The position numbers and the translations under genes were made by a program. Shown piece after piece: positions 18,808 to 20,697 of a stretch of 64,000 nucleotides of DNA. Within the stretch, counting starts at the first letter, position 1. Each line of letters opens with the position of its first letter. Source of the DNA: Escherichia coli (GTDB lineage Bacteria; Pseudomonadota; Gammaproteobacteria; Enterobacterales; Enterobacteriaceae); the NCBI RefSeq assembly GCF_003334405.1, contig NZ_QOWM01000002.1, one strand, 5' to 3'. The notes beneath the pieces are model-generated. The model made no database searches. It was not told the origin of the DNA and was given only the letters and a program-made list of their open reading frames with translations.

Positions 18808-20697
18808 ATGGCTGAATTCGAAACCACTTTTGCAGATCTGGGCCTGAAGGCTCCTATCCTTGAAGCCCTTAACGATCTGGGTTACGAAAAACCATCTCCA
18901 ATTCAGGCAGAGTGTATTCCACATCTGCTGAATGGCCGCGACGTTCTGGGTATGGCCCAGACGGGGAGCGGAAAAACTGCAGCATTCTCTTTACCTCTGT
19001 TGCAGAATCTTGATCCTGAGCTGAAAGCACCACAGATTCTGGTGCTGGCACCGACCCGCGAACTGGCGGTACAGGTTGCTGAAGCAATGACGGATTTCTC
19101 TAAACACATGCGCGGCGTAAATGTGGTTGCTCTGTACGGCGGCCAGCGTTATGACGTGCAATTACGCGCCCTGCGTCAGGGGCCGCAGATCGTTGTCGGT
19201 ACTCCGGGCCGTCTGCTGGACCACCTGAAACGTGGCACTCTGGACCTCTCTAAACTGAGCGGTCTGGTTCTGGATGAAGCTGACGAAATGCTGCGCATGG
19301 GCTTCATCGAAGACGTTGAAACCATTATGGCGCAGATCCCGGAAGGTCATCAGACCGCTCTGTTCTCTGCAACCATGCCGGAAGCGATTCGTCGCATTAC
19401 CCGCCGCTTTATGAAAGAGCCGCAGGAAGTGCGCATTCAGTCCAGCGTGACTACCCGTCCTGACATCAGCCAGAGCTACTGGACTGTCTGGGGTATGCGC
19501 AAAAACGAAGCACTGGTACGTTTCCTGGAAGCGGAAGATTTTGATGCGGCGATTATCTTCGTTCGTACCAAAAACGCGACTCTGGAAGTGGCTGAAGCTC
19601 TTGAGCGTAACGGCTACAACAGCGCCGCGCTGAACGGTGACATGAACCAGGCGCTGCGTGAACAGACACTGGAACGCCTGAAAGATGGTCGTCTGGACAT
19701 CCTGATTGCGACCGACGTTGCAGCCCGTGGCCTGGACGTTGAGCGTATCAGCCTGGTAGTTAACTACGATATCCCGATGGATTCTGAGTCTTACGTTCAC
19801 CGTATCGGTCGTACCGGTCGTGCGGGTCGTGCTGGCCGCGCGCTGCTGTTCGTTGAGAACCGCGAGCGTCGTCTGCTGCGCAACATTGAACGTACTATGA
19901 AGCTGACTATTCCGGAAGTAGAACTGCCGAACGCAGAACTGCTAGGCAAACGCCGTCTGGAAAAATTCGCCGCTAAAGTACAGCAGCAGCTGGAAAGCAG
20001 CGATCTGGATCAATACCGCGCACTGCTGAGCAAAATTCAGCCGACTGCTGAAGGTGAAGAGCTGGATCTCGAAACTCTGGCTGCGGCACTGCTGAAAATG
20101 GCACAGGGTGAACGTACTCTGATCGTACCGCCAGATGCGCCGATGCGTCCGAAACGTGAATTCCGTGACCGTGATGACCGTGGTCCGCGCGATCGTAACG
20201 ACCGTGGCCCGCGTGGTGACCGTGAAGATCGTCCGCGTCGTGAACGTCGTGATGTTGGCGATATGCAGCTGTACCGCATTGAAGTGGGCCGCGATGATGG
20301 TGTTGAAGTTCGTCATATCGTTGGTGCGATTGCTAACGAAGGCGACATCAGCAGCCGTTACATTGGTAACATCAAGCTGTTTGCTTCTCACTCCACCATC
20401 GAACTGCCGAAAGGTATGCCGGGTGAAGTGCTGCAACACTTTACGCGCACTCGCATTCTCAACAAGCCGATGAACATGCAGTTACTGGGCGATGCACAGC
20501 CGCATACTGGCGGTGAGCGTCGTGGCGGTGGTCGTGGTTTCGGTGGCGAACGTCGTGAAGGCGGTCGTAACTTCAGCGGTGAACGCCGTGAAGGTGGCCG
20601 TGGTGATGGTCGTCGTTTTAGCGGCGAACGTCGTGAAGGCCGCGCTCCGCGTCGTGATGATTCTACCGGTCGTCGTCGTTTCGGTGGTGATGCGTAA
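18808..20697 (+). CDS. deaD: DEAD-box ATP-dependent RNA helicase DeaD/CsdA
   Basis: Track ORF 18742..20697 trimmed to MAEFETTF; motifs [25 protein letters not shown]; RG-rich C-terminal repeats. Confidence 0.92.

Follow-up and report, generated by a model that had tools for sequence, protein, structure and literature searches.

In-frame length alleles in the repeat-containing, predicted disordered C-terminal tail of the Escherichia coli RNA helicase DeaD

The deaD gene and its product

The DNA analyzed here is a 64,000-nt stretch of E. coli contig NZ_QOWM01000002.1 (hereafter the window), which carries on its + strand the gene deaD, encoding the E. coli cold-shock RNA helicase DeaD/CsdA (Table 1). 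The reading frame opens with ATG at 18808 and closes with a TAA stop codon at 20695–20697. A preliminary description made from the letters of the DNA had already named the product as DeaD, and this identity was confirmed by a profile search, in which the product scored 1397.5 bits against the NCBIfam equivalog NF008642 (cutoff 989), with residues 1–629 aligned end to end to positions 1–628 of the 628-position model. The identification agreed with the 100% identity to K-12 and with the RefSeq annotation of deaD between yrbN and mtr; in the BW25113 annotation over identical sequence, the gene order was pnp-nlpI-yrbN-deaD-mtr, with matching start and stop. Pfam searches returned the domain order expected for DeaD (DEAD, Helicase_C, dimerization domain, DbpA-type RNA-binding domain, DeaD_C), with matches at residues 30–196 (DEAD), 232–340 (Helicase_C), 374–443 (DeaD_dimer), 489–558 (DbpA), and 568–629 (DeaD_C). 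The RNA-binding domain (RBD) lies directly upstream of the C-terminal tail, and AlphaFold2 (AF2) predicted for it a beta-alpha-beta-beta-alpha-beta fold with a pLDDT of about 70. The segment encoding the tail was 100% identical to that of K-12 strains and derivatives, and it was found as a single copy, always annotated as deaD, in each of the 5,426 complete E. coli genomes.

Table 1. Features of the deaD locus and of its tail-encoding repeat (positions are those of the window)
Feature	Position	Strand	Evidence
deaD (csdA) CDS, 629 aa + stop	18808..20697	+	NCBIfam NF008642; Pfam; RefSeq BW25113 deaD mapping
DbpA-type RNA-binding domain (RRM fold), residues 489–558	20272..20481	+	Pfam PF03880, E=3e-20
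Arg/Gly-rich C-terminal tail, predicted disordered, residues 564–629, net charge +8	20497..20694	+	PF12343; AF2; PDB coverage
Repeat unit 1, 11 residues	20509..20541	+	Tandem Repeats Finder + consensus matching
15-nt unit GAGCGTCGTGGCGGT (GERRG), 1 copy here	20515..20529	+	loci L001, L004
8-nt microhomology GCGTCGTG, copy 1; −132 allele breakpoint	20517..20524	+	L003
Repeat unit 2, 11 residues	20542..20574	+	Tandem Repeats Finder + consensus matching
18-nt exact direct repeat GGCGAACGTCGTGAAGGC, copy 1; left breakpoint of −78 allele	20545..20562	+	L006, L013
12-nt unit CGTGAAGGCGGT (REGG), duplicated in +12 allele	20554..20565	+	loci L002, L005
Repeat unit 3, 15 residues (11-residue unit + 4-residue insertion)	20575..20619	+	Tandem Repeats Finder + consensus matching
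Repeat unit 4, degenerate, 21 residues, merges into conserved terminal motif	20620..20682	+	
18-nt exact direct repeat GGCGAACGTCGTGAAGGC, copy 2; right breakpoint of −78 allele	20623..20640	+	
8-nt microhomology GCGTCGTG, copy 2; −132 allele breakpoint	20649..20656	+	
Intrinsic terminator, deaD transcript end	20740..20771	+	9-bp stem, 6 GC pairs, then TTTTTTT

An Arg/Gly-rich tail predicted to be disordered

The preliminary description had pointed to an Arg/Gly-rich C-terminal tail and quoted its peptide, which is the exact translation of the + strand. Arginine and glycine together make up 59% of the tail, a mixed-charge repeat of R, G, E and F in which 19 residues are basic and 11 acidic. 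Residues 568–629 matched the whole of Pfam PF12343 (DeaD_C; E=9.2e-12, 45.6 bits, model positions 1–62 of 62), a family that Pfam titles "DeaD helicase C-terminal disordered region". AF2, run with a 35-sequence alignment, gave the tail a pLDDT of 42–49 without secondary structure. In the PDB no solved chain extends over the tail, the DeaD chains spanning only residues 6–210 and 218–445. The tail is intrinsically disordered according to these predictions rather than by measurement, and it is already catalogued: Pfam curates it as a family, and the helicase that carries it is among the best studied of E. coli.

The tail had also been called RGG-like. We scanned it by regular expression for the RGG/RG classes of Thandapani, as defined in PMC9957100, and found no tri-RGG, di-RGG or tri-RG motif; the only hit was one di-RG (RGGGRG, tail positions 9–14), which belongs to the weakest RGG/RG class. 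The tail holds one RGG and three GGR, and its arginines stand in RR doublets flanked by Glu (GERRE), with Glu present in every unit. The term fits only loosely, given the missing multi-RGG motifs and the Glu of each unit.

A degenerate repeat kept at the protein level

The tail is made up of four degenerate 11-residue units with the consensus [G/S]GERR[E/G]GGRxF, arranged as QPHT, the four units, GGDA, and the stop codon. Tandem Repeats Finder reported a repeat at 20510–20604 with a period of 33, 2.9 copies and 70% matches. The 26-nt DNA consensus of the preliminary description, said to occur three to four times, was recovered at 20512, 20545 and 20578 with 1–3 mismatches (0 expected in shuffles), with a fourth, truncated copy beginning at 20623. 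The longest exact repeat within the tail is the 18-nt GGCGAACGTCGTGAAGGC.

At the DNA level, the best self-match of a 60-nt segment was 45/60 at an offset of 33, a value reached by none of 2000 nucleotide shuffles and by 2 of 2000 codon shuffles. At the protein level, the best self-match was 17/20 at an offset of 11 and was equalled in none of 2000 shuffles. When the protein was held fixed and the codons were resampled from deaD usage, a DNA match of 45.6 was expected, as compared with the observed 45, so the protein repeat accounts for all of the signal in the DNA repeat. In agreement, where different units had the same residue, its codon was identical in only about half of the cases, as expected from codon bias. 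This is an old repeat, kept at the protein level, and the likeness of its DNA is that of a protein repeat combined with codon bias. A recent DNA duplication or a DNA-level function was rejected because synonymous resampling reproduces the self-similarity.

In-frame length alleles among E. coli genomes

The search for length alleles covered all 5,426 complete E. coli genomes, with deviant matches read individually. Carriers were counted with junction-specific queries that the wild-type sequence cannot seed, so that the counts are lower bounds: at least 230 of the 5,426 genomes (4.2%) carry in-frame length alleles of the tail, while 96% retain the reference length. Comparison of C-terminal length among strains thus showed a tail that is not invariant but occurs in five in-frame length alleles, bearing out the earlier suggestion that the repeat is a likely source of copy-number variation.

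The most frequent allele (+12 nt, 158 genomes) duplicates the REGG-encoding CGTGAAGGCGGT in unit 2. In the +15 nt allele (48 genomes) the GERRG unit GAGCGTCGTGGCGGT is present twice, and in the +30 nt allele (2 genomes) three times; the junction query common to both matched 52 places in 50 genomes, and the two genomes that were matched twice are those in which the GERRG unit is triplicated. The −78 nt allele (21 genomes) arose by recombination between the two exact copies of GGCGAACGTCGTGAAGGC, with the loss of 26 residues, and the −132 nt allele (at least 1 genome) by deletion between the two GCGTCGTG octamers, with the loss of 44. The net charge of the tail is +5 in the −78 allele and +1 in the −132 allele. 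The breakpoints of all five alleles sit at internal direct repeats, all five are in frame, and the last 17 residues are kept in every one.

When a 241-nt tail query was searched, 214 genomes showed less than 95% identity, as compared with 5 for an adjacent 241-nt control, which adjoins the tail and contains another low-complexity linker, rich in Arg and Asp. Length variation is thus concentrated in the repeat array. Query coverage by BLAST fell below 80% in only 6 genomes, against the 21 with the −78 junction; this mismatch likely arises because BLAST lets the second piece of the match run on to the left into the degenerate repeats, bringing coverage above 80%. Locus L013 confirms that the −78 deletion is real. 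As a separate observation, many database entries carry frameshifted tails, and the repeat often trips assemblies and gene calls.

All six sampled carriers of the +15 allele, from China, Switzerland, Egypt, Ukraine, the Galapagos and the USA (four continents), encoded a DeaD protein of one and the same accession beside one and the same mtr allele, and the two +12 carriers examined shared one accession (n = 2). These shared accessions and mtr alleles indicate single events inherited by lineages, and they suggest that the alleles are mostly lineage-inherited and not hypervariable. The −78 allele alone was found on two downstream haplotypes, between which 6 differences were counted over about 200 nt, suggesting either recurrence or later recombination. 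Coding SNPs among the sampled alleles were all synonymous in the deaD frame. Since the −78 and −132 alleles, from which 26 and 44 of the tail's 66 residues are missing, occur in clinical isolates, viability does not require most of the array.

These data bear on a role at the level of nucleic acid, in which the repeat would serve as a contingency (phase-variable) tract, as a regulatory mRNA structure, or as a carrier of overlapping or antisense ORFs. Such a role is largely refuted, and we regard it as extremely improbable, although the coding strand is 40% G and the +1 frame (20492–20707) and the minus strand (20388–20720) each have a long ORF. The similarity of the units at the DNA level is, as shown above, what codon bias predicts. 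A phase-variable tract was rejected because the units are only 70% alike, with periods of 33 and 45 nt, and because all unit lengths and indels are multiples of 3, leaving no on/off switching; the alleles are lineage-fixed, and repeat-number variation within lineages was not encountered among the sampled +15 carriers. A structured or regulatory RNA was rejected on the basis of an RNA fold z-score of −1.0 and the lack of any Rfam match in 17000–22500. The +1-frame and antisense ORFs were rejected because in the deaD frame, unlike in the other frames, the SNPs are silent; these ORFs owe their existence to the GGN/CGN/GAA codon periodicity of the repeat.

The tail across Enterobacterales and beyond

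Tails from other genera were collected by a homologue search with the C-terminal 155 residues, which returned mostly gene fragments, suitable for reading tails, rather than a clean set of orthologs. Tails of other Enterobacterales were 38–89 residues long with one to five GERR-like units. There were 39 distinct complete tails, again of 38–89 residues, and in 38 of these the net charge was +7 to +9, a descriptive count in which kinship is ignored. In the alignment across genera, the RBD was near-invariant and the tail full of gaps, between which a few short stretches were conserved (GGERR, GERRE, PRR(D/E)(D/E), and a terminal RRR(FG)DA). GERR units were recognizable from Escherichia to Yersinia and Serratia, and within the tail conservation was highest at the terminus PRR(D/E)(D/E)...RRR(FG)DA. 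In a Klebsiella-type gene, two adjacent units were identical at 30 of 33 nt and the remaining units were at background, suggesting that units are still slowly being gained and lost. Vibrio-type tails were basic and disordered-looking, without GERR units or the terminal motif.

The conserved terminal motif could instead mark a specific partner, and protein docking might then be the main job of the tail, with the C-terminus acting as a short linear motif and the GERR repeats as a spacer of variable length. Candidate partners would be the ribosome, RNase E in the cold-shock degradosome, or another helicase. Such docking would account for a terminus that is conserved across Enterobacterales while repeat number varies and that stays intact in all five natural length alleles, and it has a precedent in RhlB, whose unstructured C-terminal extension binds the protein RraA (PMC3814787). 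However, the positions of the direct repeats would by themselves spare the terminus in the deletion alleles, the motif is absent from Vibrio-type tails, no partner for it was found in the literature consulted, and C-terminal constructs did not bind in the two-hybrid mapping of NudC and CsdA (PMC10654059). Taken together, we consider docking unlikely as the main function.

A neutral low-complexity array is another explanation, in which the repeats would have come about through slippage in a G-rich region with biased codons and would simply be tolerated, their length drifting without a selected function. The persistence of the 26- and 44-residue deletions in natural isolates and the range of tail lengths between genera are consistent with such drift, as is the activity of a CsdA construct without the tail (PMC11850223). 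By contrast, every observed allele is in frame and every coding SNP is synonymous, the length variants are a 4% minority beside the reference length, net charge is held within a narrow range in nearly all of the distinct tails despite their changes in length, and GERR units have been kept across enterobacterial genera to the point that a Pfam family could be built on them. Neutrality of the array is thus quite unlikely in our judgment.

Proposed role of the tail

The reading that we favor, and hold to be probable, is that of a flexible disordered tail built from an old protein-level repeat, which yields in-frame alleles by slippage or recombination and serves as a basic RNA tether. The units still share exact stretches of 8–18 nt, which would permit occasional replication slippage or unequal recombination; these events would produce in-frame expansions and deletions that are passed down lineages and are now seen in about 4% of E. 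coli genomes, and across genera tail units would have been gained and lost. Judged from its composition, the tail would act as a flexible, net-positive, mixed-charge tether off the folded RBD. By analogy with other helicases, it may make multivalent, sequence-non-specific contacts with RNA that add affinity, may favor strand annealing, and may contribute to DeaD foci or condensates. Its composition, net charge and terminal motif would weigh more than the exact number of repeats.

Published data on CsdA and related helicases are consistent with a secondary role of this kind. In PMC11850223, which summarizes Xu et al. 2017, the figures given for RNA binding are ~1 uM for the isolated CsdA RBD and 0.07 uM for the full-length protein, and the RBD is described as the major RNA platform, the construct without the tail being enzymatically active; the folded RRM-type RBD is therefore the main RNA anchor, to which the tail would be secondary. 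CsdA speeds annealing without ATP, and its basic C-terminal extension has been proposed as the source of this activity (PMC3590231). Evidence for non-specific RNA binding by basic tails has been reviewed for RhlB, Mss116p and CYT-19 (PMC3814787). DeaD forms foci in vivo and undergoes phase separation into droplets in vitro (PMC7414142; PMC12758526), and the IDRs of RhlE helicases modulate RNA binding and phase separation (PMC11260450). In the literature consulted, with Xu et al. 2017 represented by secondary summaries, no experiment isolating residues 564–629 or deleting the tail only was found, and PMC12758526, PMC10654059, PMC4402597 and a 2026 NAD-cap preprint held no tail-specific content.

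The natural alleles form a series of tails of 22, 40, 66, 70, 71 and 76 residues, with net charges from +1 to +10. This series may tune RNA tethering or the threshold for condensation, an idea that we consider improbable. If it is true, tail alleles would affect growth in the cold, the assembly of ribosomes, or phenotypes of stress and persistence, and expansions or contractions would bring an advantage to particular clinical lineages instead of being neutral. Removal of the whole C-terminal extension, studied by Turner et al. in 2007, reportedly weakened function at moderately low temperature without abolishing it.

The gene, its domain architecture and the disordered C-terminus are all catalogued, and the significance of the locus is slight beyond its correct annotation. 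What is added here is the explicit anatomy of the repeat, together with an inventory of the in-frame length alleles that occur naturally in the tail and of their breakpoints. With changes from −44 to +10 residues, the natural series is ready material for probing the roles of bacterial helicase IDRs in RNA binding, annealing and condensates.

Comparison with known systems

The tail described here corresponds to PF12343 (DeaD_C) of E. coli DeaD/CsdA, covering the same region and the full 62-position model, with nothing structurally different. The basic tails of yeast Mss116p, Neurospora CYT-19, E. coli RhlB and Pseudomonas RhlE1/RhlE2 are likewise disordered and net-positive and follow the helicase core. 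According to PMC3814787 and Mallam et al., the tails of Mss116p, CYT-19 and RhlB tether the core to large RNAs. Mss116p, CYT-19, RhlB and RhlE tails have no sequence homology to the DeaD tail, and, unlike such plain basic tails, that of DeaD is a mixed-charge repeat placed behind a folded RRM-type RBD, which is itself an RNA anchor.

The GAR/RGG domains of fibrillarin, nucleolin, GAR1 and hnRNP U, and of DDX4 and LAF-1, resemble the DeaD tail in being Arg/Gly-rich and disordered and in belonging to RNA-handling proteins that form condensates. The regularly spaced Phe of the DeaD tail, in a GFGG context, recalls the GAR domain of fibrillarin (PMC9957100). The DeaD tail differs from eukaryotic RGG boxes in falling outside the tri-RGG, di-RGG and tri-RG classes and in carrying its RR doublets beside Glu. 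Arginine methylation is not known from E. coli. The resemblance to GAR/RGG domains is one of convergent composition, not of homology.

The dimeric DEAD-box helicases Hera of Thermus thermophilus and CshA of Geobacillus and Staphylococcus have the helicase core, the dimerization domain and the RBD in common with DeaD (PMC11850223). The DeaD product matched the CshA profile at 496 bits, with the match ending at residue 435, and the corresponding PDB match was 5ivl. The GERR-repeat tail behind the RBD is peculiar to enterobacterial-type DeaD.

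Frameshifted tails and database entries

Many of the database proteins matched by the homologue search with the C-terminal 155 residues of DeaD, which are mostly gene fragments, carry exactly the Val-rich tail that the +1 frame encodes (e.g. P0008, P0009, P0022, P0035, P0081 and P0088), as do Klebsiella-type entries such as P0054, P0063 and P0069. The tail of P0042 leaves the frame and then returns to it. Because most of the proteins with frameshifted tails come from read-assembly or metagenome sources, these tails probably reflect mistakes made within the repeat during sequencing or assembly, not real alleles. 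Across the repeat of the E. coli gene, both the +1 frame and an antisense frame are open (table).

Some partial proteins labeled Acinetobacter baumannii or Pseudomonas aeruginosa match DeaD C-termini of the Escherichia or Klebsiella type at 97–100% identity, and one enterobacterial-type C-terminus is filed under the insect Rhodnius prolixus (T1HJI0). These entries (P0038, P0051, P0075 and P0061) look as if the assemblies behind them contained contamination or symbiont sequence. In the E. coli genome collection, the deaD segment occupied at most two places per genome, and was found on a plasmid once, as a second copy in one genome.

The −132 nt tail allele of E. coli FXCREC035 encodes a protein of 585 aa. 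RefSeq gives it just the general name "DEAD/DEAH family ATP-dependent RNA helicase" instead of calling it "DeaD"; the protein may have fallen under the naming threshold through loss of the tail.

Features of the deaD region other than the repeat
Feature	Window position	Strand	Length	Remarks
yrbN	18735-18815		26 codons	RefSeq annotation; 8-nt overlap with deaD start
Arg/Asp-rich linker	20137-20271			Second low-complexity stretch of deaD; between dimerisation domain and RBD
Weak 9-nt periodicity	20129-20152			In Arg/Asp linker stretch
Antisense ORF over repeat	20388-20720	-	110 aa	Open; Pro/Arg/Ser-rich
+1-frame ORF over repeat	20492-20707	+	71 aa	Open; Val-rich
Terminator hairpin	20740-20764			Scores as terminator on minus strand too

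Gene boundaries and the linker

In the mechanical ORF list, deaD reaches upstream to a TTG at 18742 (651 aa); the start that is annotated and backed by the family model is the ATG at 18808 (629 aa). The hairpin of the deaD terminator, downstream of the gene, scores on the minus strand as well, although its tail on that strand is just GTATATATTA. Strain EC0026B has a SNP in the loop of this hairpin. The length of the Arg/Asp linker is essentially invariant within E. coli, and between genera indels are abundant in it.

Comparison with a Klebsiella-type tail

One Klebsiella-type deaD tail contains an 18-nt exact repeat pair, GGCGAACGTCGTGAAGGC, at tail nt 93 and 138, located at corresponding units. 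The pair may have been kept by codon bias, and would make this Klebsiella-type gene prone to an equivalent of the E. coli −78 deletion (a loss of 26 residues): it is common to both tails, and in E. coli it mediates that deletion.
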